Origin: an uncultured delta proteobacterium
Lineage (GTDB): Bacteria > Desulfobacterota > Desulfobacteria > Desulfobacterales > SG8-13
Assembly: GCA_963825595.1 (NCBI GenBank)
Contig: CAWGUE010000017.1
Coordinates: 18,779 to 82,778, forward strand
Reading direction: 5' to 3'
Length of the DNA stretch: 64,000 nucleotides
The notes beneath the pieces were generated by a model, which was not told the DNA's origin, did not search any database, and saw only the letters and a program-made list of their open reading frames with translations. Below are positions 3,157 through 62,920 of this stretch, one piece after another; position 1 is the first letter of the stretch, and every line of letters starts with the position of its first letter. The translations under genes were made by a program, and so were the position numbers.

Positions 3157-4425
3157 ATGAGCAAGGTCAGTATCATCGGCGCATACAACACAAAATTTGG
3201 CGCCTTCGTAGAAAAAAATAGGGATACCGGCGAGATACGGGACACCAAATCATATTATGAGCTATTGATCGAAGCCGGCAGAGGCGCGCTTGAGGACGCC
3301 GGATTGGAACCGTCAGAGATCGACGGTATCTGGATCGGGTCCTGTTCGCCGTCTCTTTTTATTCACCAGGAACACGTCGGACCGCTGGGTTTGGAGGTGG
3401 CACCCGAGGCCTTGCGCTTTGTTCCCACGACACGGACCGAGGGGGCTTGCGCATCCTCTTCCGTGGCCCTCTACAACGCGATTTATGGAATCGAATCGGG
3501 ACGATTCAAAAGAACACTGGTTATCGGTGTCGAAAAAATGAACCTGCTCGGCACGCGGGAGATGACCCATGCACTGGCTTGCTCGTCCCACTGGCCGACG
3601 GAGGGATCCCAGGGCATGACCTTTCCGGGTTTATTTGCCGAATATGCCAAAGGGTATAAAAAACATTACGGATACAGCGACGAGGATTTACAACAAATGC
3701 TCGCGGCCGTTTCGGCCCTGTGCTATCGCAACGGCATCGAGAACCCCTTGGCCCACTTCGGCAAAGGGAGTCCGCCGGACCGGATGGGTTTGACAACGGC
3801 AAAGGCCATTCTCGAACTTCCCGACAGTGGCAAAGGGGGCAATCCGATGATCGCCCCGCCTTTGCGGCTCCATGACTGCTCGCTTGTGACAGACGGCGCG
3901 GCGGCCGTGGTCCTGGCGCCCACTGTCGATGCGGGATCGATCACCGAAAAGGTTGTCGAAATCGCCGGTATCGGGCTGACCACCGAAAGAATGCCGGAGA
4001 ACGTCCGTCCCAACATGCATGAACTGGTGGCCGGAAAGTTGTCAATCAACAAATCATTTGCCGAAGCCGGCATCACCATAAAAGATGTCGATTTTGCCGA
4101 GGTGCACGATTGTTTCACCATCAATCAGATCTTGAGCGTGGAAGCGTTGGGTCTGTCCGAGGACGGCCGGGGCGGATGGGATTTCATCGATGGCAAATAC
4201 ACGCCGGAAGACACGTGCCCGATCAATCTTTCCGGAGGACTGAAATCGAAAGGACACCCTGTCGGCGCCACTGGCGCTTCCATGCACGCATTGGCCTACA
4301 AACAAATGGTGGGGGAGCCGATCGGGCTGGCGCCGAAGAAGGGGCAGCCGGAAATCGGCGTTGTTTTCAACGTCGGGGGATCAGCAGTCACGAACTGCAC
4401 TACGACATTGCGCAGGATCAAATAA
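3157..4425 (+). CDS. thiolase-fold acyl-CoA acetyl/acyltransferase (SCP-x / non-specific thiolase type)
   Basis: 422 aa. Active-site Cys context EGACASSS; C-terminal HDCF and GGLKSKGHPVGATG thiolase motifs. GAAAGGAG RBS. Confidence 0.85.
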   Translation: MSKVSIIGAYNTKFGAFVEKNRDTGEIRDTKSYYELLIEAGRGALEDAGLEPSEIDGIWIGSCSPSLFIHQEHVGPLGLEVAPEALRFVPTTRTEGACASSSVALYNAIYGIESGRFKRTLVIGVEKMNLLGTREMTHALACSSHWPTEGSQGMTFPGLFAEYAKGYKKHYGYSDEDLQQMLAAVSALCYRNGIENPLAHFGKGSPPDRMGLTTAKAILELPDSGKGGNPMIAPPLRLHDCSLVTDGAAAVVLAPTVDAGSITEKVVEIAGIGLTTERMPENVRPNMHELVAGKLSINKSFAEAGITIKDVDFAEVHDCFTINQILSVEALGLSEDGRGGWDFIDGKYTPEDTCPINLSGGLKSKGHPVGATGASMHALAYKQMVGEPIGLAPKKGQPEIGVVFNVGGSAVTNCTTTLRRIK

Positions 4426-4436
4426 TGGACGGAAGC

Positions 4437-4633
4437 CATTTAGTGTCCGTCCACGATTATTAAAGAAGACTGATCCGTTTCCGATCCACAAATGAGCAAT
4501 TTTCTGTAAGTTCAAGGAAATTAATGAATTGTGCGGAGGCGCACTCGAGTACGCCGCACAAGAGATTCCGCCGATTGACGCTGAAATTGCGGAAAAGGGC
4601 CATTTAGGGACGGAAACCATTTAGTGTCCGTCC
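4437..4633 (-). repeat. intergenic hairpin element family R2, full copy bounded by two near-identical 26-nt hairpins
   Basis: GGACGGAAGCCATTTAGTGTCCGTCC at 4437-4462 and GGACGGAAACCATTTAGTGTCCGTCC at 4608-4633. The reverse complement of the interior aligns by eye with 36441-36615 and 58395-58595 (GCGGCGTAC...GCGCC hairpin, AAAATTGCTCATTTGTGGATCGGA). Confidence 0.7.
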
Positions 4634-4765
4634 AGAAATGGTAGCATTCGGCCCCGGCCAAGACCGCAGCAATTTTGCAGCCGCAGGCGGTGCCATGCTA
4701 CGTCGAGGATTGCAAAAGAGCGAGAACGCTGGCCCGGGTCGAAAGATGCCGTTTCTGGATGGACA

Positions 4766-5191
4766 CTATTTGGGTTTCCGCGGCGGGCTCACCAACGCTT
4801 CGCCGTCAAGAACCGTTGTGCCCTCCTGGTTGACGCACCAGGTTTTCAGACGCACCCTTTTTTTATCCGATATGATGTCAATCACCTCGGCAATGGCCGT
4901 TACCGTGTCGCCGATTTTGACAGGCGCCAGAAAATTGACTGCCTGGCGCATGTAGATCGAGCCCGGCCCGGGCAGCATCGTTCCGATAATGGTGGAGATA
5001 AAACTGGCCGTCAGCATGCCGTGGGCGATGCGGGTCTTGAAGTGGGTCCCGGCAGCAAAGGTTTCATCGACATGAGCCGGGTTGAAATCCCCCGATACAC
5101 CGGCAAACAAGTAAATATCGGTTTCGGTGATCGTTTTCGAAAAACGGGCTTGCTGCCCGATACTGAGTTCTTCGATCGTTTTTCCAATCAT
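4766..5191 (-). CDS. phaJ: MaoC-like (R)-specific enoyl-CoA hydratase
   Basis: 141-aa hot-dog fold. Motif GDFNPAHVDETFA...IAHGML. AAGGAGG RBS. Adjacent to PHA genes. Confidence 0.85.
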   Translation of the reverse strand: MIGKTIEELSIGQQARFSKTITETDIYLFAGVSGDFNPAHVDETFAAGTHFKTRIAHGMLTASFISTIIGTMLPGPGSIYMRQAVNFLAPVKIGDTVTAIAEVIDIISDKKRVRLKTWCVNQEGTTVLDGEALVSPPRKPK

Positions 5192-13885: not shown

Positions 13886-15166
<1,281 letters not shown>

Positions 15167-25441: not shown

Positions 25442-27403
25442 TCAATACAAGAGCCTTCCGAGGGATTTAAGGATGAGAGCAAAACCCATCGCAAACATGC
25501 CGGTCAAGCCCATGCCGCAGGCAAAACCGGCCAGAAGCACCGGTGCGTACTGCCGCCACATGGCTCCGTAGCGTTTCAGGAAGAAAAACCGTCCCAACAG
25601 GGCGCCGATCACCTCCAGCAGGAACCCGTGGGGTGTGGACTGACCCAGACCGCGGACCACGCCGTAAATCAGTAGAACCGGCAGCCCCAGCAGTGACAAA
25701 ACGGCGTAGGTCACCAGTCCGAACAACATACCCGTGAATACATAGCTGGCTCTCAGTGCCTGGAAAAACAGAGAATTGCCCTCCAGGGTCGAGGTCTGCA
25801 TCAGCAGCGAGTTAAGGGCCTGAAGGTGCCAGAGTTCCTGGGCGTACGGGTAGTTGCTGGAGGGGATCGGCGCCAGGCGCCAAATGAACTGTGAAAAAAG
25901 GAGGCTGGCAATCATAACCACCGGGAATACAATGATTTCAGCCTTTATGATTCCGCGCAGACTGGTACCGGTCAGTTCGATCTCGCGAAAAGATACCGTG
26001 GCTTCACCGTAATTGTGGATCGGAATGGGCGCATACCAGATTTCGATGCCCTGGTAGCCGAAAAACCGGGCGCCGGCGATAAAGCTGGCCTCGCGCACCA
26101 TGGGCAGGCTCACGAACTGACCGGCAATTCCTTCCATCCGGGCGGTGATATATGAGACCAAAGGTGTGTATACAAAGCCGTAACCGAGAAAAAACAGCCA
26201 GGGAAAATTGGGAACGAGCCAAACGCAGAGCCCCACGTATGATAGGGTGGAGAACACATAGATTCCAATAGAAATCCAGATATTGATGTCGCCCCGGCTG
26301 GGATGCGAGTGCAGCAAATCTCTGAGGCTTCCGCGTTGCCCGGGTGCGTTTTTACCAAAAGACCTAAAAACCGCCCAGATGCCGATGGCGGCTATGGCCA
26401 GACCAAGACCGATCCCGAAACTCATGTAAAAGTCGAAATTGTTGGCGAAAACCGTGTCGACCGTCCCCATTCCTTCGTGCCAGCGATAGAGAATACCGTG
26501 GCGGAAGAGGATCGGATTGGCCACGAAGGTGATGATCACGCCGATCAGGCCGCCGATGACCGCCCAGAAGGGGAGCACCATTCCGACGAAAAGCAGGGTC
26601 AGGTCAAATTGGATGCCGGTCGCCACCGCCGGCATCACCCTTTCGGTGTAGCGGGTCAGTTCGACCCACGGTATCGGTATCAGGCGGATCGGTTCCATCA
26701 GAACCAGGCCGGAGACAGTGGGCAGCAGCACATAGATGGCCCCGAAAACCAGACCGATCATCCCGCCAATGGAAAATACTCGCCACTTCCAGCTCTTCTG
26801 TTTATCTTCCGTGGACTCGGCCAGGGCCATGGTTCCCAGTGCACCCACCGGCGCCATGGGAAACGGGAGTTTCTCGACGTCGGACGTGAGGCGGTACAAT
26901 GTGTACCCAAGTCCGAAACGGTCGATACGTTGAATCAACTGAGTACCGACAAGCAATAGAATCGGTATCAGCCAGTCCCTGTGGAAAAAGCTCCGCTGTA
27001 CGAGAGAATCCGATTCGGCGGAAGGCGCTATCCAGGTCGGTATGAATTCGGTCAATCCGAGCATTCGGGCCGCATCGGACTGAACCAGATACTGGTTCCA
27101 GAGCAACCCCTGAAATGGCGTGGCCATGGCGGCACCGGCCATATAGTACAGCAGAAATATTTCCTGCTGTTTCAATTCGGTGTAGGACCGCTTGGCCACT
27201 TCGGCAAACAGGATGATGGTGACCCAACGGGCGGCCGGGCCGATTCCGGTACCGATGACCAGTTGCAAATACATGCTGCCGGGCATCATCAGAAATCCGA
27301 TGAATATGGCCCCGATGACGGTCTTCCAGTCAAACCCTTCTTCAAAATGCTCCGGAGGTTTGAGCAGGTCGCGGTATTCTTTGAGTTCTTTGTCGTCGTA
27401 CAT
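25442..27403 (-). CDS. polytopic membrane protein (653 aa), distantly OPT-transporter-like
   Basis: Many predicted TM helices. N-terminal FDWKTVIGAIFIGFLMMPGSMYLQLVIGTGIGPAARW resembles the first helices of OPT-type transporters. Function unknown. Confidence 0.7.
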   Translation of the reverse strand: MYDDKELKEYRDLLKPPEHFEEGFDWKTVIGAIFIGFLMMPGSMYLQLVIGTGIGPAARWVTIILFAEVAKRSYTELKQQEIFLLYYMAGAAMATPFQGLLWNQYLVQSDAARMLGLTEFIPTWIAPSAESDSLVQRSFFHRDWLIPILLLVGTQLIQRIDRFGLGYTLYRLTSDVEKLPFPMAPVGALGTMALAESTEDKQKSWKWRVFSIGGMIGLVFGAIYVLLPTVSGLVLMEPIRLIPIPWVELTRYTERVMPAVATGIQFDLTLLFVGMVLPFWAVIGGLIGVIITFVANPILFRHGILYRWHEGMGTVDTVFANNFDFYMSFGIGLGLAIAAIGIWAVFRSFGKNAPGQRGSLRDLLHSHPSRGDINIWISIGIYVFSTLSYVGLCVWLVPNFPWLFFLGYGFVYTPLVSYITARMEGIAGQFVSLPMVREASFIAGARFFGYQGIEIWYAPIPIHNYGEATVSFREIELTGTSLRGIIKAEIIVFPVVMIASLLFSQFIWRLAPIPSSNYPYAQELWHLQALNSLLMQTSTLEGNSLFFQALRASYVFTGMLFGLVTYAVLSLLGLPVLLIYGVVRGLGQSTPHGFLLEVIGALLGRFFFLKRYGAMWRQYAPVLLAGFACGMGLTGMFAMGFALILKSLGRLLY

Positions 27404-27407
27404 GTTT

Positions 27408-27477
27408 GGGATACGGGTTACGGGTTACGAGTTACGAGTTACGGGTTACGGGTTACGGGTTGCGAGTTGCGGGTAAT
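27408..27477. repeat. heptanucleotide tandem array, 10 units of GGGTTAC type
   Basis: GGGATAC GGGTTAC x2 GAGTTAC x2 GGGTTAC x2 GGGTTGC GAGTTGC GGGTAAT. It starts 5 nt from the ATG (27401-27403) of the 653-aa gene. Confidence 0.95.
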
Positions 27478-38211: not shown

Positions 38212-38862
38212 TTATGACATATTCGGGTTGAGGGCCTGGGCATTGATTTCTTCTATCGCGATCCGGCCGTGCCTGGCAATCAGCAAATGAAGGTGTGCGG
38301 GCTTCAGCAGGCGGGCCTCGGTCGGGAGAAATCGCCGCAGCAGCAGACGATACACCAGGCACTTTATGACGCCCTCATGGGTGACAATGAGGATCGATTC
38401 ACCCGGCCATTTGGCGGCCGCCGATTCGAGTGCCCGCCGGCCTCTTTCCCAAACGCTGTTCCGGTCTTCTCCGCCGGTGGGATGAAACCGCCAACCGCGT
38501 CGCGTCTGCTCGGCCAGGTGTTCAGATTTCTCTTGGGTAAGCTGTGCCAGAGTTAAGCCTGACCATTGCCCCCAGTCCTGCTCTCTCAACCCGGCCTCCT
38601 GAACCAGGGGGACCTTGACCATCTTGTTGATAATGGCCGCGGTTGTCTGCGCCCGTCCGAGATCGCTGCAAATGCAGCGGTCCCAGTGATACTTTCGGAG
38701 AATACGTCCCCAGGTCTCAGCCTGCTTTTTCCCGTGGTCCGTCAGGGCGGAGTCGAGCTGGCCCTGGATTCGTTTTTCTTTATTCCAGACGGTCTGGGCA
38801 TGTCGAATGAGCCCGAAACGCGTTTGCTTGTCTGAATCTAGCCCGTTGGAAAAGTTCTTCAT
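38212..38862 (-). CDS. histidine phosphatase family protein (phosphoglycerate-mutase-like)
   Basis: RFGLIRHAQT (RHG motif) and VTHEGV. The ATG at 38862 overlaps the upstream stop (ATGA), suggesting translational coupling. Confidence 0.8.
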   Translation of the reverse strand: MKNFSNGLDSDKQTRFGLIRHAQTVWNKEKRIQGQLDSALTDHGKKQAETWGRILRKYHWDRCICSDLGRAQTTAAIINKMVKVPLVQEAGLREQDWGQWSGLTLAQLTQEKSEHLAEQTRRGWRFHPTGGEDRNSVWERGRRALESAAAKWPGESILIVTHEGVIKCLVYRLLLRRFLPTEARLLKPAHLHLLIARHGRIAIEEINAQALNPNMS

Positions 38863-39971
38863 TTTCTTATTGCCATCTCTTTCAAAACGTCTTCCACAGC
38901 GGTGTAGTTTTTTGCCAGATCCCGCTCCCGCCGGATATAATCCTCGGCCGCGCACCCCATTTCCAATCGGCGGCCGGGGTTCAGCATCAGTTCTTCTACA
39001 GCCCGCTCAAAGGGGGCCGCCGCATTGAGGGGCGTCAGCACACCGGTCTTGCCGTTGACGACAACCTCCGGCACACCGGCATTGGCAAACGCCACGACCG
39101 GGAGACGGCAGGATTGGGCTTCGAGAAACACCATTCCCAGAGATTCTCCGATCCCCGGAAAAACAAACAGGTCGGCGGCGCTGTAGTAACGGAACATCTC
39201 TGCCCGCGGAATTTTTCCCACGAAGCGAACCTTCCCGGGGATATGGATCTCCGCCAGACGCTTGAGCGCACCCATTTCCTCGCCGTCTCCGACGACAACC
39301 AGCATCAGTTCATGGCCGCGCCGCAAAAGGCTTCCGCAGGCACGGATGACCCAAGCCACACCTTGCGCCTTGACACCGGGACGGAGCATGGCTGCCGTCA
39401 AGAGGATTGGAATACCCTCGATCTGCCACTGTGATCGCAGTCCGGCACGGCCGTCAGAATCGAAACGGAACTCTGCCGGATGAATACCGGGCGCGGCATA
39501 GGACACCCGCTCCAGTGGCAGCAACCGCTTCAGATTGACAAAATCGACCCGTTTGTTGACGAAGACATGCCGCGCCGCCTGCAGTGATCTTCTGTTGAGG
39601 AAAAATCCCGCCAACGTCCGGATGTCACGCCGATACTTGGTTGCATATGCACCCTGAAAGATGGCGTATGGGATTCCTTTTCGGGCGGCAACAGACGGCC
39701 CCAGCAGATCCGGGCCTTTGTAGTAGGCGTGGTAGGTCAACCAGAGATCGTAACCGCCGGGGGGCAGGCGCCGAAGAAGCCGCCGGCGTTCGGCCAACAG
39801 GTGGGGCAGCATCCAGGGTTTCCAGAATATCCAGCGGGCCCGTAGCGTGCTGGCCACCTGCAGTCGGTGGCCTTTGGCCTCGAGGTACTCATACAGGCCG
39901 GTGCCGATGACCAGATCGCCGGAGGGATGACGGTGCCCCAGCGGTTTGAAAGGGGCATAGAAAAGAATGTT
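38859..39971 (-). CDS. GT4-family glycosyltransferase; no canonical start codon before the conserved N-terminus
   Basis: C-terminal EAQSCRLPVVAFANAGVPEVV motif. The conserved N-terminus ILFYAPFKPLGHRHPSGDLVIGTGL is in frame upstream of the tracked GTG (39857). Only ATT codons lie between it and the in-frame TAA at 40014-40016, which is inside the heptad array. Confidence 0.65.
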   Translation of the reverse strand, partial: NILFYAPFKPLGHRHPSGDLVIGTGLYEYLEAKGHRLQVASTLRARWIFWKPWMLPHLLAERRRLLRRLPPGGYDLWLTYHAYYKGPDLLGPSVAARKGIPYAIFQGAYATKYRRDIRTLAGFFLNRRSLQAARHVFVNKRVDFVNLKRLLPLERVSYAAPGIHPAEFRFDSDGRAGLRSQWQIEGIPILLTAAMLRPGVKAQGVAWVIRACGSLLRRGHELMLVVVGDGEEMGALKRLAEIHIPGKVRFVGKIPRAEMFRYYSAADLFVFPGIGESLGMVFLEAQSCRLPVVAFANAGVPEVVVNGKTGVLTPLNAAAPFERAVEELMLNPGRRLEMGCAAEDYIRRERDLAKNYTAVEDVLKEMAIRK

Positions 39972-40047
39972 TAATGTTTGGTGTGTGGTGTTTGGTGTTT
40001 GATGAATTGGTGTTTAGTGTTTGGTGTTTGGTGTTTGGTTTTGATCG
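39967..40047. repeat. heptanucleotide array, GTGTTTG type (about 11 units, one phase slip)
   Basis: ATGTTTA ATGTTTG GTGTGTG GTGTTTG GTGTTTG ... GGTGTTT x3. Left member of an inverted pair. Confidence 0.9.
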
Positions 40048-40184
40048 GTTTGATCTCATGGATTTAAAATGGGCATTTCCGCCAGATAAAAATGTTTTAA
40101 GGGATCTTTTGGGTTATGTTGAAAGATTATCGATCCTTAACCGCTAAAGCGGTAATTCCCTTCAATACTCTCATTTGCTTTTGA

Positions 40185-40217
40185 CCATACACCAAACACA
40201 AAATACTAAACACCACC
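40185..40217. repeat. heptanucleotide array, CAAACAC orientation (about 4 units)
   Basis: CCATACACCAAACACAAAATACTAAACACCACC. Right member of the pair; it overlaps the stop of the 40206..41471 gene. Confidence 0.8.
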
Positions 40218-46606: not shown

Positions 46607-46655
46607 GATTTTGATTTTTGTGTTTGGTGTTTGGTGTTTTGTGTTTTGTGTTTAG
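46607..46655. repeat. heptanucleotide array, GTGTTTG type, 7 units
   Basis: GATTTTG ATTTTTG TGTTTGG x2 TGTTTTG x2 TGTTTAG. Left member of an inverted pair. Confidence 0.9.
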
Positions 46656-46835
46656 TATGAAATAGTTGCGCCATCTTTGGCCGGGTCAACCTTCCCGGCC
46701 TCAGTTCAAACCGTGTAAAAGGTAAGCCCGATGCTGGCTCGATGTCAATTAATTCGCTACTTCATACCACCGGCTGCTCATGGTTTGCAAATGCTTATGT
46801 TATCCGATAATATTATGCGTTTTATATATACGAAT

Positions 46836-46906
46836 AACCCGTAACCCGTAACACCATAACACCGAACACCGAAACACCGTAACACCAAACACCAAACACC
46901 AAACAC
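46836..46906. repeat. heptanucleotide array grading from GTAACCC through GTAACAC to CAAACAC units
   Basis: AACCCGTAACCCGTAACACCATAACACCGAACACCGAAACACCGTAACACCAAACACCAAACACCAAACAC. It ends 10 nt before the GSCFA ATG. Confidence 0.9.
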
Positions 46907-46916
46907 GGTATTTATC

Positions 46917-47876
46917 ATGGCCCGCTCCGATGTCCATCCGGTTCACACATTCGAACCCTGGCAAGTATGGCCGGGATCCTATAAAAACCCACCGGCGGAC
47001 GGCACCTACCTTTTTCCGCCGGAGCCGGGTTTGACCATCACCCGTGAAACCCCCATCGCCTCTATGGGGTCCTGTTTCGCCCGCGAAATCCGCAAACGGT
47101 TGCTCGCCGAGGGTTTCAATTACATTACCGAGGAGACCCACCACCCGGCCGCCGTCCATGCCAGCGCGGCCTGGGAAAGATCCTACAACACCTTTTCCAT
47201 GCGCCAGATATTCGAGTACACTTTCGAAGACTGGAACCCGGCGGTGCGTTGGTGGCAGGCCCCGGTTTCGCAAAAGATCCAGGACCCTTTCCGGCGGATC
47301 ATCCTCTACGACGACCTGGATCAAGCCGAGGCGGACTTTGCCCGGCACCGCAACCACTCGCAGCGCGCCCTGGAGCGTGCCGAGGTGCTCATCCTGACCC
47401 TCGGGCTGACCGAGATTTGGGAAGATCAGTCGGACGGTGCGGTCATCTGCCTACCGTCAGGGCCTTATGTGAATGAAGGCGGCGACATGCACCGCTACCG
47501 GTTCCGGGTGAGCCGGTATGCCGACAACCTGGCCAACCTGGAACGGATCCACACCATCATGGCCGCCCACAACCCCCGCTGCGCCCTGCTGGTAACGGTT
47601 TCGCCGGTGCACCTGTGGGCCACCTTTCGCAAGGATATCGACGTCATCGGCGCCAGCTGCAACTCCAAATCCACCCTGCGGGCGGCGGCCGATGAGTTCG
47701 CCGCCCGCCACGACAATGTGTTCTACTTTCCGGCCTTTGAAATGGCCACGATCTACCAGCCGCTCATGGGCAGGACGTGGTTCGCCGACGGCAAGGAGAA
47801 CTTTCACGTCGACAAGCAAACCGTGAAGTTCATCATGCGCAATTTTTTCAACATGTATGCCCGCCCGCACAATTAA
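46917..47876 (+). CDS. GSCFA-domain protein
   Basis: Eponymous IASMGSCFAREI motif, then LTLGLTE and VSPVH blocks. 319 aa. Confidence 0.8.
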   Translation: MARSDVHPVHTFEPWQVWPGSYKNPPADGTYLFPPEPGLTITRETPIASMGSCFAREIRKRLLAEGFNYITEETHHPAAVHASAAWERSYNTFSMRQIFEYTFEDWNPAVRWWQAPVSQKIQDPFRRIILYDDLDQAEADFARHRNHSQRALERAEVLILTLGLTEIWEDQSDGAVICLPSGPYVNEGGDMHRYRFRVSRYADNLANLERIHTIMAAHNPRCALLVTVSPVHLWATFRKDIDVIGASCNSKSTLRAAADEFAARHDNVFYFPAFEMATIYQPLMGRTWFADGKENFHVDKQTVKFIMRNFFNMYARPHN

Positions 47877-60310: not shown

Positions 60311-62237
60311 TTATATAATGCGACTGAAGGCCTTCTCCAAATCCCGGCCCGTCCACTGCACCCACGTCGGTCTCCCATGGGGGCAGTGGGAGGGATTTTC
60401 GCAGGCATCCAGCTGCTGGAGCAGCCGCCGGATCTGCCGGTCATCGAGGGCCTGGCGGGCCCGGATCGACCCGTGGCAGGCCATGAGCTTCAGACAGACG
60501 TCGATGGACGGGTCCAACCCGCGGTTAAACCCGTCGGTGGCCAGTTTTTCCACGATCTCGCGGATCAGCGGTTCGATCGCCCGCCCGGTCAGCATGGCAG
60601 GAACCGCCCGCACGACGAACGTGTTGGTACCGAAGGGCTCGATCTCGAGCCCGAGGGTTTTGAACTCGGCCAGCAACTCTTCCAGAATACCGGCTTCCCG
60701 GAACCCCAATTCGATCGTCTCCGGAACCAGCAGCCGCTGGGCCTCCTTTTTCAAGGCCGCGGAGCGCTTCTTGAGCTGCTCGTAAAGCACGCGCTCGTGG
60801 GCGGCATGCTGATCGAGAAGAAGCAATCCCCCGCCGGTTTCGCAAACGATGTAGGCGTTGCCCAGCTGCCCGATGATCCTTAAATTACCGAAGCGAATTT
60901 CCGCCAGGAAAATCTGCGGTTCACCCCGGCTACCGGACAAATATTTCCAGGGCTCGCGCTCGTCATCCGCTTTATGACGGGCGGATGTTTTCCCTCCATC
61001 CCGGCCGCTGAAAATTGTCGGCAGGCCATCGATCGGCGTCGCGACCATGTATATCACCAACCCGCCTTTGACCTTTCCCCTTTTCCCTTTCAGCTTTCAG
61101 CTTTGAGCTTTCAGCTTCACCCTTTGAGCTTTGACCTTTCAGCTTTGAGCTTTGAGTTTCATAACCGGTTCCCAGATTTTCGGAAATACGCGGTATTGCC
61201 TGTGAAGGCTCAGGCGGCGTGAAATCCGCCCCTTTCCACATCGGCCGGTCCTCTCGGTCGAGGGTTTCCGCTACCGCGGTCTGCACCAGGTCGTGAACGA
61301 GGCGTTGCTGCGCAAAACGGACCTCGTGCTTGGTCGGATGAACGTTGACGTCCACCTCGCCGCTGGGAAGGGTGACAAAAAGGGCGGCCAACGGAAAGCG
61401 GCCTTTAACCAACCGCTGCCGATAACCCGCAAACAGAGCATGTTGAATGACCCGGTCGCGCACAAACCGACCGTTGACATAATTGAAAACCCCGCGCGAG
61501 GTGCTGCGGAATACCCGCGGAGAAGACACCCAACCATCGACGCTGACCGCATCGGCCTGCCGGCCGACCGGATAGAGTTCGGCGCGCAGGTCGGTCCCCA
61601 ACACCTCGGCCACCCGGTCAAGCCGATCGGCAGCCGGCGGCCAGCTCTTCAGGGTTTTGCCGTTGTGCACCAGCCGGAAAAAGACTTCCGGTCGTCCCAG
61701 GGCGATGCTGTTGGCAACATCGGCAATGTGACCCATCTCGGTGGTGACGGTTTTCATAAATTTGCGGCGCGCCGGGGTGTTGAAAAAAAGGCTCTCGACC
61801 GTCACCATCGTGCCCGGCGGCGCACCGGTGTCCGCGACTTTCAGAATCTTTCCTCCCGCCACGCGAATCTCGGTACCGGCGGCGGCTTCCGACTCGCGGG
61901 TGACAAGGGTCAAGCGGGACACCGCCGCGATGCTCGGCAGGGCCTCACCCCTGAACCCGAGGCTTTGAATCGAATACAGATCGGCATCCGTGAAGATCTT
62001 GCTCGTGGCGTAGCGTTCAAGGGCCAGCAGGGCGTCGTCGCGGTTCATGCCGCTGCCGTTGTCGGATACCCGGATCAGACTGCGGCCCCCTTTTTCCGCC
62101 TCCACAACGATCTTGGTGCTTCCCGCATCCAGGGCGTTTTCCACCAATTCCTTGACCACCGAAGCCGGCCGCTCGACCACTTCTCCGGCAGCAATCTTGT
62201 TGGAAATGATTTCAGGGAGGATTCTTATTTTGGACAT
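60311..62237 (-). pseudogene. mutL: DNA mismatch repair endonuclease MutL, reading frame broken inside a heptad array in the linker
   Basis: ORF 60972..62237 holds the GHKL ATPase (ELVENALDAG, DNGSGM, GFRGEAL) and transducer. ORF 60311..61060 holds the C-terminal domain (DQHAAHERVLYE, ACHGSIRA, CPHGRP). The frames differ by 1 nt. The upstream TGA of the C-terminal frame is at 61097-61099, within the array. Confidence 0.9.
61064..61161. repeat. heptanucleotide array inside mutL, 14 units (AGCTTTG/AGCTTTC/CCCTTTC/ACCTTTC)
   Basis: GCCTTTG ACCTTTC CCCTTTT CCCTTTC AGCTTTC AGCTTTG AGCTTTC AGCTTCA CCCTTTG AGCTTTG ACCTTTC AGCTTTG AGCTTTG AGTTTCA = 98 nt. Confidence 0.95.
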
Positions 62238-62314
62238 GATTAGGTTGTGTTTTGTGTTTGGTGTTTAGTTTTTTGTGTTTGGTGTTTGGTGTTTAGTGTT
62301 TTGTGTTTTGTGTT
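62238..62314. repeat. heptanucleotide array, GTGTTTG type, 11 units
   Basis: It starts at the base next to the mutL ATG (62235-62237) and contains the last 25 codons and stop of the four-helix-bundle ORF. Confidence 0.95.
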
Positions 62315-62668
62315 TCCGATGGCATTCAGATAGGCATTGAGGGAAGGGGCGAGTTCATCAAGGATGCCTTTGACTGTACTTATTTTTGTGTCGTCGAAAA
62401 GACTTCTATTATACGCTCTTCGCAACCAATAGCGCGTCTCATGCAAGGACCCGCGTGCGATTCTTACGAAACGCTTGTTATCAGCCGGTGTGCCTCTACC
62501 CGCGCCCTCCGCTATATTGGCGCCGACACTGTCTGCAGATCCAACGAGTTGTTTGCCGACCGTATCTTTTTCGAAGTGGTTCCATTTTTTTACCACATCC
62601 CAAATCTCATCGGCCAATCTTTCAGCCAGCTGGAACACCCGTAACTCTTCAAACCGCACAAATCCCAT
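62240..62668 (-). CDS. four-helix-bundle protein (23S rRNA intervening-sequence protein / Avd-like family)
   Basis: FEELRVFQLAERLADEIW, SADSVGANIAEGAGR, ARGSLHETRYWLRRA family motifs. The C-terminal tail GNTKHKTLNTKHQTQKTKHQTQNTT is translated array. GAGGGGG RBS. Confidence 0.85.
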   Translation of the reverse strand: MGFVRFEELRVFQLAERLADEIWDVVKKWNHFEKDTVGKQLVGSADSVGANIAEGAGRGTPADNKRFVRIARGSLHETRYWLRRAYNRSLFDDTKISTVKGILDELAPSLNAYLNAIGNTKHKTLNTKHQTQKTKHQTQNTT

Positions 62669-62681
62669 CAGCCCCCTCTAT

Positions 62682-62737
62682 CCAAACACTCTATACCAAA
62701 TACCAAACACAAAACACTAAACACCAGACACTAATCT
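62682..62737. repeat. heptanucleotide array, CAAACAC orientation, 8 units
   Basis: CCAAACA CTCTATA CCAAATA CCAAACA CAAAACA CTAAACA CCAGACA CTAATCT. Inverted relative to 62238-62314. It ends at the stop codon of the 62738..62920 ORF. Confidence 0.9.
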
Positions 62738-62920
62738 CTAAATCTTCTCATCTTTAACAAACCGCTGCAAAAACTCCGTCTCCAAAGGTGAGAGGTCGAA
62801 TTTGCGGCTGGCGTCTTCGAGCAATTTCTGCAGCGGGAGGGTTGGGCTGTGCTGGCGTTCTTCGGTGATCCACTTGACGGCTTTTCTGATATCTTCGCTG
62901 TCAGGCTGTATTGTCGTCAT
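62738..62920 (-). CDS. small hypothetical protein (60 aa)
   Basis: MTTIQPDSEDIRKAVKWITEERQH... after AAAGGAAAAG. The tracked longer ORF to 63043 has no support. Confidence 0.4.
   Translation of the reverse strand: MTTIQPDSEDIRKAVKWITEERQHSPTLPLQKLLEDASRKFDLSPLETEFLQRFVKDEKI

Follow-up and report, generated by a model that had tools for sequence, protein, structure and literature searches.

How does half a kilobase of repeats, with a small gene inside it, come to fill the junction between two genes that almost touch in many related bacteria? The locus lies in a stretch of 64,000 nucleotides from an uncultured delta proteobacterium of the Desulfobacterales (contig CAWGUE010000017.1, positions 18,779 to 82,778), which as a whole is called the window here. 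Between the stop codon of a small open reading frame (ORF) and the start codon of mutL, 500 nt are wholly taken up by an array of heptamers, a gene encoding a four-helix-bundle (4HB) protein, and a second array complementary to the first. An earlier note on this DNA, made from the sequence alone, had described a 500-bp cassette filling the intergenic space in this way, and it was confirmed by the repeat analysis, by the match of the protein to PF05635/TIGR02436, and by ends that lie 0–2 nt from the neighboring genes. We consider it probable that the cassette is a member of a widespread, apparently undescribed class of operon spacer, in which a 4HB gene is enclosed by complementary, lineage-specific heptamer arrays, and that this class is the messenger RNA (mRNA) spacer counterpart of the ORF-bearing intervening sequences (IVS) of 23S rRNA.

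Structure of the cassette

Tandem Repeats Finder detected one array at 62245–62315 (period 7, 10.1 copies, 87% matches; GTGTTTG-type on the plus strand) and another at 62695–62731 (period 7, 5.3 copies; CAAACAC-type on the plus strand). Parsing by hand extended these to 10–11 units at 62238–62315 and eight units at 62682–62737. The best pair of arms, 62251–62301 and 62684–62734, covers 51 nt and is 86% complementary. The double heptad GTGTTTGGTGTTTG, with up to two mismatches, occurs 27 times in the window compared to 0.5 expected, and none of 100 shuffled sequences reached this number. The mutL ATG is at 62237–62235 and the TAG stop codon of the small ORF is at 62740–62738; because the inverted repeat ends 0–2 nt from both neighbors, the cassette occupies the entire 500-nt spacer.

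On the minus strand, the 60-codon ORF ends in its stop codon and is followed in turn by eight GU-rich heptads, GAGGGGG, the 142-codon 4HB ORF, 10–11 AC-rich heptads, CCTAATC, and the mutL ATG. In the mRNA sense, the 5′ arm (62682–62737) has approximately eight degenerate GUGUUUG-type heptads, starting at the small-ORF stop codon and reading AGATTAG, TGTCTGG, TGTTTAG, TGTTTTG, TGTTTGG, TATTTGG, TATAGAG, and TGTTTGG. As read from the sequence, GAGGGGG (62672–62678, minus strand) resembles a Shine-Dalgarno sequence and lies 3 nt 5′ of the 4HB start codon (62668–62666). The 4HB gene (62240–62668, minus strand) ends with its stop codon 2 nt before the mutL ATG. The 3′ arm (approximately 62238–62318, minus strand) consists of 10–11 CAAACAC-type heptads and ends in CCTAATC, which abuts the mutL ATG. 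This array is at the same time the A/C-rich leader of mutL, a gene without a Shine-Dalgarno sequence. The GC content of the cassette is 45.6%, compared to 60% in mutL.

The 4HB gene is the sole ORF of the cassette, and PF05635 is its sole Pfam family. Its neighbors are gatA, the small ORF (62738–62920, minus strand), which adjoins mutL in relatives with and without the cassette, and mutL itself (60311–62237, minus strand). Neither a reverse transcriptase nor a template/variable repeat pair was found near the 4HB gene, where heptamer arrays are the sole repeats, and PADLOC returned no defense-system match for it. When the window was searched against Rfam at gathering thresholds, no family and no rRNA were detected, and the cassette gave a chance-level match only.

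The four-helix-bundle protein

The 4HB protein belongs to the PF05635/TIGR02436 family, whose members are annotated as “23S rRNA IVS protein” or “S23p”. It scored 96.8 bits against PF05635 (cut-off 33.8; E = 1e-27) and 88.6 bits against TIGR02436 (cut-off 24; E = 3e-25). Residues 1–118 form this domain, and residues 119–142 are translated from the 3′ array. An AlphaFold (AF2) monomer model built from 58 homologues has a pLDDT of 86.7, with helices at residues 10–26, 31–58, 61–87, and 93–116; residues 10–116 are mostly above 90, and the array-encoded tail is disordered. In Foldseek, the closest solved structure was XCC0516 (2GSC; rmsd 1.0–1.2 Å, TM 0.92), followed by BT_0352 (2RLD) and then by Avd, a protein of diversity-generating retroelements (DGRs) (4DWL and 8UB7; TM approximately 0.8, identity 9–13%). 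From 2GSC and 2RLD, each deposited with five chains, we infer that the 4HB protein may likewise form a pentamer.

The array-encoded tail had been taken in the earlier note as a sign that the ORF has lost its own terminus, which was not borne out. Tails of the NTKHQTP type, translated from CAAACAC arrays and varying in length, are present in 35 of the 120 closest homologues, and some of the others end in tails derived from other heptads. Homologues usually stop within the first array units, as does the protein of the close relative L002, which stops inside the first one; the terminus of the window gene is therefore not lost.

Across three pairs of genomes, dN/dS was 0.08–0.22 for the 4HB gene and 0.06–0.07 for mutL, and the 4HB protein is under purifying selection. 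Between the window and relative L001, dS was 0.25 in the 4HB gene, 0.19 in the small ORF, and 0.06 in mutL. The approximately fourfold higher value in the 4HB gene than in mutL could come from recombination or gene conversion into the cassette, or from local hypermutability near the arrays.

Distribution across phyla

A genome scan with one genome per species yielded 80 loci encoding proteins 57–67% identical, 78 of them with full flanks. The scan loci come from Cyanobacteria, Planctomycetota, Verrucomicrobiota, Acidobacteriota, Lentisphaerota, Bacteroidota/Rhodothermota, Chloroflexota, and Desulfobacterota, and the package was found in at least eight phyla. For each locus, the 200 nt 5′ and 3′ of the gene were scored for complementarity and compared with control positions in the same loci. 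Flank complementarity exceeded the 95th percentile of the controls in 74 of the 78 loci (median score 25 vs. 8).

Heptamer arrays were found to flank the gene on both sides in 54 loci and on a single side in 18, and six loci gave none. Where both arrays were present, the 5′ heptad was the reverse complement of the 3′ heptad (with at most one mismatch) in 46 of 54 loci (85%), compared to 22% of cross-locus pairs. The heptamer itself differs by lineage, with 25 heptad types among the loci. The flanks of cyanobacterial 4HB genes include TTGGTCA and CAACAGT units, which correspond to the STRR2 and STRR3 units reportedly described by Mazel et al. (1990). The clades of the protein follow the type of heptad; in Microcoleus and Tychonema, one clade goes with AACAGTC and another with AATGACT/C. 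Arrays are concentrated near the gene, at 2.27 per kb within 260 nt of the 4HB gene and 0.24 per kb, a density that is still rich, in the rest of the same loci (ninefold). Among 89 distant arrays, 36 are within one mismatch of the cassette heptad and 53 differ from it by two or more.

The fit between package and gene junction is also general. In 52 loci with both arrays and resolvable neighbors, the median length of the package is 521 nt. Of 52 left neighbors, 47 are co-directional with the 4HB gene, as are 45 of 51 right neighbors. The outer end of the 5′ array lies at a median of −1 nt from the stop codon of the neighbor, and the outer end of the 3′ array at a median of +4 nt from the next start codon (45 loci), where tens of nt would be expected by chance. 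The neighbors belong to approximately 38–43 unrelated families and are ordinary housekeeping genes (mutL, recO, obg, nuoD/E, purM, trpC, lpxA, udk, and ABC transporters). One of the approximately 40 gene contexts accounts for 12–14 loci of Microcoleus and relatives; the contexts are many independent ones, each then vertically inherited within its genus. The profile patterns applied to viral contigs detected no relatives there.

The mutL site in relatives

The two closest genomes found, L001 and L002, encode 4HB proteins 87% and 85% identical to that of the window, and both have gatA, the 60-codon ORF, the 4HB gene, and mutL in the same order. The array 3′ of the 4HB gene has approximately four units in L002, compared to approximately 11 in the window. 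Scanning metagenomes with the N-terminus of MutL as the query yielded 80 loci. In 11 relatives that keep the small ORF beside mutL the site is empty, as a spacer of 0–70 nt without array or 4HB gene; in L144, for example, taa is followed directly by atg, and in L110 the spacer is 3 nt. Against these 11 stand at least seven occupied mutL sites, plus remnants. The occupied sites include L083 and L084, which have a 4HB gene with GTGTTTG-type arrays, and the “Deltaproteobacteria” matches of the genome scan, L005 and L027, are this same mutL locus.

Several sites show intermediate states. L091 has both arrays around a 4HB gene cut to its first approximately 21 codons and last few, in a 182-nt spacer, and it resembles a miniature derivative formed by internal deletion. 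A fragment of the 4HB gene and an AC-rich array remain in L087, and two heptads are left in the 33-nt spacer of L097. In L101, L093, L088, L105, and L102 there are inverted heptamer pairs built from quite different heptads, without a 4HB gene. REP-like palindromes (repetitive extragenic palindromes), for example GGAGCGGCTTTTAGCCGCGAT, occur between the small ORF and mutL in L085, L092, L106, L083, and L089. The small-ORF/mutL junction appears to be a place where several kinds of hairpin-forming repeat accumulate.

On the MutL tree, lineages with a filled site are intermixed with lineages whose site is empty, and among six carriers 4HB identity tracks MutL identity (r = 0.92). Because the two genes co-diverge and the 4HB gene is under purifying selection, the cassette at mutL is an old, vertically inherited resident of Desulfobacterales that has been repeatedly deleted or eroded. 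Independent re-insertion at this site was considered and rejected for L083, L084, L005, and L027, which fall in one GTGTTTG clade whose identity tracks mutL. One old gain with repeated loss is the simpler reading of the mutL site, although some independent gains are possible. No target-site duplication was visible at the filled versus empty junctions, where the ends of the cassette vary between orthologues. The proposal in the earlier note that this is an insertable element therefore stands in part: the cassette is a discrete unit of presence and absence (11 array-free empty sites upstream of mutL, the L091 derivative, approximately 40 contexts), while target-site duplications, transposases, and integrases all went undetected.

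The small ORF (MTTIQPDSEDIRKAVKWI...) has no match in Pfam, NCBIfam, or PADLOC. It is kept directly 5′ of mutL across Desulfobacterales, with dN/dS of 0.04–0.25, and in many relatives its stop codon lies 0–14 nt from the mutL start. The ORF may be a translationally coupled partner of mutL.

Compared with L001 and L002, where mutL is intact (641 and 640 aa), the copy in the window has a 1-nt insertion near 61,000 that splits it into two overlapping ORFs of 421 and 249 aa, with the break near 60,990–61,060. Either the assembly is wrong in a G-rich run, or mutL is truly a pseudogene here, in which case a mutator phenotype would be expected. The linker of mutL (61065–61160) contains a CTTTCAG/CTTTGAG 7-nt tandem repeat (21 nt, in frame) encoding SSKLKGQSSKGEAESSKLKAE; L001 shares this repeat in conserved form and L002 in degenerate form. 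An origin of the split by heptad slippage was ruled out, since the 1-nt insertion lies 3′ of the in-frame 21-nt repeat.

Predicted RNA helix and proposed mechanism

The two arms of the cassette pair in both the minimum-free-energy and the centroid structures predicted for the sense strand (z = −5.4). They likewise pair in the structure predicted for the antisense strand (z = −6.1). The predicted sense helix has approximately 46 bp with single-nucleotide bulges and closes a loop of approximately 380 nt that holds the ORF; its base adjoins the stop codon of the small ORF and the start codon of mutL. Nothing resembling a promoter or a terminator was found inside the cassette; on the gene strand, the single promoter-like match lies 5′ of the small ORF.

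We propose that the cassette would be co-transcribed with the small ORF and mutL by read-through, and that the GU-rich 5′ arm would pair with the AC-rich 3′ arm, bringing the upstream stop codon beside the mutL start. The helix might then be cut by RNase III, as in rRNA IVS, an idea that we draw from the 23S rRNA IVS of Coxiella because it is the closest known system. Alternatively, it might be opened by ribosomes terminating at the small ORF, which would melt the base of the helix and free the AC-rich leader with the mutL ATG. Either way, downstream expression would survive the insertion of 500 nt into a formerly 0–14 nt, probably translationally coupled junction. The AC-rich array before the ATG would act as an unstructured leader, and this would explain the constant polarity of a GT-rich 5′ and an AC-rich 3′ array. 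The likeliest route to new sites, and a plausible one, is homologous array-to-array recombination into pre-existing array pairs, for which no dedicated enzyme would be needed. Relatives differ in array length, as they would if 7-nt units were gained and lost.

Polarity of the arrays

The order on either strand is GT-rich array, core, and AC-rich array, and the reverse order is almost absent. Since the order GT-core-AC is symmetric under reverse complementation, it is uninformative on the orientation of the gene; what is informative instead is the near-absence of the opposite order and the co-orientation of the gene with its neighbors. In the window, the array strand that appears in the mRNA is A/C-rich for all five arrays adjacent to start codons (those of mutL, the genes at 27403, approximately 39958, and 46556, and the plus-strand gene at 46917) and G/U-rich for both arrays adjacent to stop codons.

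The same polarity at gene starts has been described for TAACTGA repeats in Beggiatoaceae, Cyanobacteria, and Bacteroidetes. These are mostly “forward”, and in their largest class a single nucleotide position separates the end of the array from the start codon, the array ending 1 nt before it (PMC4679880). A Shine-Dalgarno sequence is usually missing from them, and the way they are distributed points to horizontal transfer, “but no mechanism is evident” (PMC4679880).

Other arrays in the window

Heptamer arrays also occur in the window apart from the cassette. An inverted GTGTTTG/CAAACAC pair at 39966–40217 (arrays 39966–40045 and 40184–40217) lies between two glycosyltransferase genes; its 32-nt arms are 91% complementary, and its 140-nt core is homologous in L164. 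A second pair, at 46608–46911 (46608–46661, GTGTTTG-type; 46835–46911, CCGTAAC- plus CAAACAC-type), is located between carbamoyltransferase and GSCFA genes and flanks a conserved divergent promoter region; its 26-nt arms are 96% complementary. Its right array changes unit along its length, from CCGTAAC-type to CAAACAC-type (46835–46880). An unpaired GGGTTAC array of 9.6 copies (27404–27476) abuts the start codon of the minus-strand gene at 25442–27403, and its A/C-rich strand is the one in the mRNA. CCGTAAC-type units are complementary to these GGGTTAC units, and several types of heptad thus mix in one genome. At 15016–15150, a 13-nt perfect inverted repeat (15016–15028 and 15138–15150) fills the spacer of two co-directional genes and is vaguely heptadic.

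Relatives L163 and L164, whose GSCFA protein is 89–90% identical, have the same spacers with homologous cores, including a conserved promoter-like block. The arrays at these spacers have from two to approximately ten units and differ from those of the window in copy number only; L165 (77% identical) is without arrays. In L163, at 4395–4780, a GGTTCAC/GTGAACC pair is nested within the GTGTTTG/CAAACAC loop of a spacer orthologous to 39966–40217. Profile search of six-frame translations revealed no 4HB remnant in the other cores of the window. The other pairs look like arrays at gene boundaries around native spacer, not inserted cargo.

Three further pairs had been listed in the earlier note as having the same geometry as the cassette. 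The pairs at 39966–40217 and 46608–46911 held up, while the one at 15016 is reduced to a 13-nt inverted repeat with weak periodicity. The cores of the 39966 and 46608 pairs have homologous counterparts in L163 and L164, as native spacer rather than cargo. The view that all belong to one family of elements whose termini are heptad arrays was not upheld, given that the other cores are native spacer without a 4HB remnant and that arrays also occur singly, as at 27404–27476.

Comparison with known systems

The ORF-bearing IVS of 23S rRNA (Coxiella burnetii, Leptospira, and Brucella) encode the S23p protein, which is in the same PF05635 family as the 4HB protein. The Coxiella IVS is 428 nt long, similar in size to the 500-nt cassette, with the PF05635 ORF in the loop of a 28-bp terminal stem that is cut by RNase III in vitro (PMC4990558). 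Directly before the ORF are two or three tandem GACAGAT heptamers, strain-variable in number, and the 5′ cut is at the first repeat (PMC4990558). IVS and cassette therefore both have an ORF in the loop of a long terminal stem formed from inverted repeats (predicted in the cassette), tandem heptamers of variable number beside the ORF, and a distribution that is sporadic at first and then retained vertically. In this light, the earlier note was apt in drawing a link to rRNA intervening sequences.

The two differ in location, since IVS interrupt helix 25 or 45 of 23S rRNA and the cassette lies in the spacer of a protein-coding operon. The cassette stem is almost all long heptamer arrays, of 8–11 units or more. 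Its 4HB gene is under purifying selection, whereas the S23p of Coxiella is reportedly in decay and not expressed. RNase III excision has been demonstrated for the IVS (PMC4990558), while processing of the cassette is a prediction.

STRR and TAACTGA-type heptamers are intergenic 7-nt tandem units that end a few nt from start codons in one orientation, change by indels in 7-nt steps, and are patchy across phyla (MacGregor, 2015; PMC4679880). The arrays of the cassette have the same properties, being tandem 7-nt repeats, intergenic, variable in copy number, and of one orientation at starts. The published descriptions differ in treating arrays alone; the terms “S23”, “four helix”, and “intervening sequence” do not occur in PMC4679880, which mentions neither an enclosed 4HB gene nor inverted pairing.

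Avd has the same fold as the 4HB protein, and its small gene also lies between repeats. In DGRs, Avd is the RNA-binding pentamer of a ribonucleoprotein (PMC10053308). However, it shares only 9–13% identity with the 4HB protein, the cassette has no nearby reverse transcriptase or template/variable repeat pair, and DGR repeats are direct and approximately 130 bp long instead of inverted heptamer arrays. REPIN/RAYT systems, like the cassette, combine a single gene with a flanking inverted short repeat that also populates other intergenic regions, and they have long vertical residence and hairpin-forming repeats. They differ in that RAYT is an IS200/IS605-type transposase, whereas no catalytic activity is known in the 4HB protein, and in that REPs are unique palindromes of approximately 20–40 nt rather than tandem heptamers. 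Miniature inverted-repeat transposable elements (MITEs) are similarly short and intergenic, with terminal inverted repeats and internal-deletion derivatives. The cassette differs from them in having neither target-site duplication nor cognate transposase, and its ends are variable arrays, not defined termini.

Alternative explanations

Several observations weigh against a spacer class that acts through an RNA helix. The helix, the RNase III cut, and the coupling are all predictions. Across the 78 loci, sense and antisense duplex energies are alike (36 vs. 42, p = 0.74), as are the counts of G·U pairs; given this lack of asymmetry, complementarity alone cannot tell an RNA hairpin from a DNA hairpin or from copying at the DNA level. 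The arms of the cassette are unequal (8 vs. 11 units) and only 86% complementary, and they diverged independently between the window and L001. The three heptamers of the Coxiella IVS read opposite in polarity to the 5′ arrays found here. Ordinary spacers that lack a 4HB gene are likewise enclosed by array pairs, and some arrays stand unpaired, which indicates that arrays do not need the gene. Finally, purifying selection on the 4HB gene argues against a purely selfish passenger.

This selection can also be read as a sign that the protein acts on the arrays. The 4HB protein could be a sequence-specific trans partner, in the manner of REPIN/RAYT, that binds, spreads, maintains, or regulates arrays genome-wide, or that is autoregulated through them. 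The cassette heptad recurs in the spacers at 39966 and 46608, and in the other genomes 36 of the 89 distant arrays are within one mismatch of the heptad of the cassette there; in Microcoleus and Tychonema, 4HB clades track the heptad type (AACAGTC vs. AATGACT/C). The structural relative Avd binds RNA as a pentamer (PMC10053308), and MacGregor suggested that a repeat-binding protein might itself be a mobile element (PMC4679880). However, the tracking would be expected just as much if gene and arrays were simply inherited together, 53 of 89 distant arrays are two or more mismatches away, the family has no known catalytic motif, and binding is putative; moreover, one 64-kb window cannot show co-occurrence at the genome level. 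We regard this explanation as rather unlikely. A broader form, which we offer as speculation and would not expect to hold, is that the non-DGR PF05635 proteins are the missing trans partners of heptamer arrays such as STRR and TAACTGA. Each paralogue would have a heptad of its own as target, on RNA or on single-stranded DNA, and would either seed and maintain arrays or control opening of the hairpin at operon junctions; the cassette would be the autonomous unit spreading between phyla, and the rRNA IVS would be the same element in rRNA.

Mobility could instead reside in the arrays as terminal inverted repeats of a MITE-like transposable family, with the 4HB cassette as the full-length element and the short-core pairs as non-autonomous ones. 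Empty sites, the internal-deletion derivative L091, and the nested pair in L163 would fit such a family, as would the approximately 40 contexts across phyla, protein identities of 57–67% between phyla, and the GC content of the cassette (45.6% vs. 60% in mutL). We nevertheless think it quite improbable. Filled and empty junctions show no target-site duplication, no transposase was found, and the 4HB protein is without nuclease or recombinase features; the other cores of the window are native, conserved spacer without a 4HB remnant. Array copy number drifts in place, the cassette co-diverges with its host at the mutL site, and the profile patterns applied to viral contigs gave no relatives. The least probable explanation, and in our view a very improbable one, is centered on the arrays and the host: they would be landing pads for a single-strand binder with a 7-nt footprint (a cold-shock-domain protein, possibly S1) that tunes hairpin melting and translation at gene junctions, and the 4HB gene would be merely tolerated. 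A common phase, GT[C/T]N[T/G]TN, can be set for all 54 upstream heptads, and it resembles the Bacillus subtilis CspB heptamer GTCTTTG/T (PMC1904285), although the GT phasing was partly chosen by rotating each heptad. The 7-nt period equals the footprint of one cold-shock domain, arrays without 4HB genes sit at gene starts and stops, and Csp and S1 are among the candidate binders of MacGregor (PMC4679880). Such binding is putative, and it leaves unaccounted for both the enclosure of this particular gene in 74 of 78 loci and the selection on it.

Novelty and significance

The cassette is classified as an IVS-type element in mRNA spacers, tied to STRR-type repeats. Its components are known (the PF05635 family, rRNA IVS, and STRR/TAACTGA heptamers), and apparently the composite has not been described in the searchable literature. 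Searches for TIGR02436, for “S23 ribosomal protein” with heptamer, and for “four helix bundle protein” with heptanucleotide returned nothing. The statement in the earlier note that no such element had been described needs to be narrowed accordingly: no paper was found linking the arrays to 4HB genes in mRNA spacers, but heptamers at gene starts and heptamers in IVS have been described. STRR heptamers were reportedly described in cyanobacteria in 1990.

The origin, function, and cross-phylum spread of heptamer repeats have so far been unexplained (“no mechanism is evident”; PMC4679880). The package described here gives these repeats, the PF05635 family, and the origin of ORF-bearing rRNA IVS one common object that is experimentally tractable, with cultivable carriers in Microcoleus, Tychonema, and Calothrix. 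To our knowledge, PF05635 has no known function outside DGRs. The cassette is a natural 0.5-kb insertion in a tight gene junction whose operon apparently still works, which is relevant to translational coupling, RNase III biology, and the design of synthetic operons.

There are also consequences for annotation. In a screen for new CRISPR systems, “23S rRNA IVP” is named in a figure legend among novel CRISPR-linked proteins (PMC10910872). Arrays flanking 4HB genes, which have super-periods of 14, 21, and 28 nt, might have been picked up as CRISPR-like, and this might account for that “CRISPR association”. Array-encoded tails and array-extended N-termini are routinely mis-called as coding. In relatives of the window genome, gene callers ran the ORF of the glycosyltransferase gene to the left of the 39966 array through the heptamer array. 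In the window, that gene (38859–39958, minus strand) appears frameshifted, being present as a 73-aa ORF starting at the ATG at 39958 followed by a 332-aa ORF, while its orthologues have approximately 394–399 aa; this split is possibly a second assembly error.

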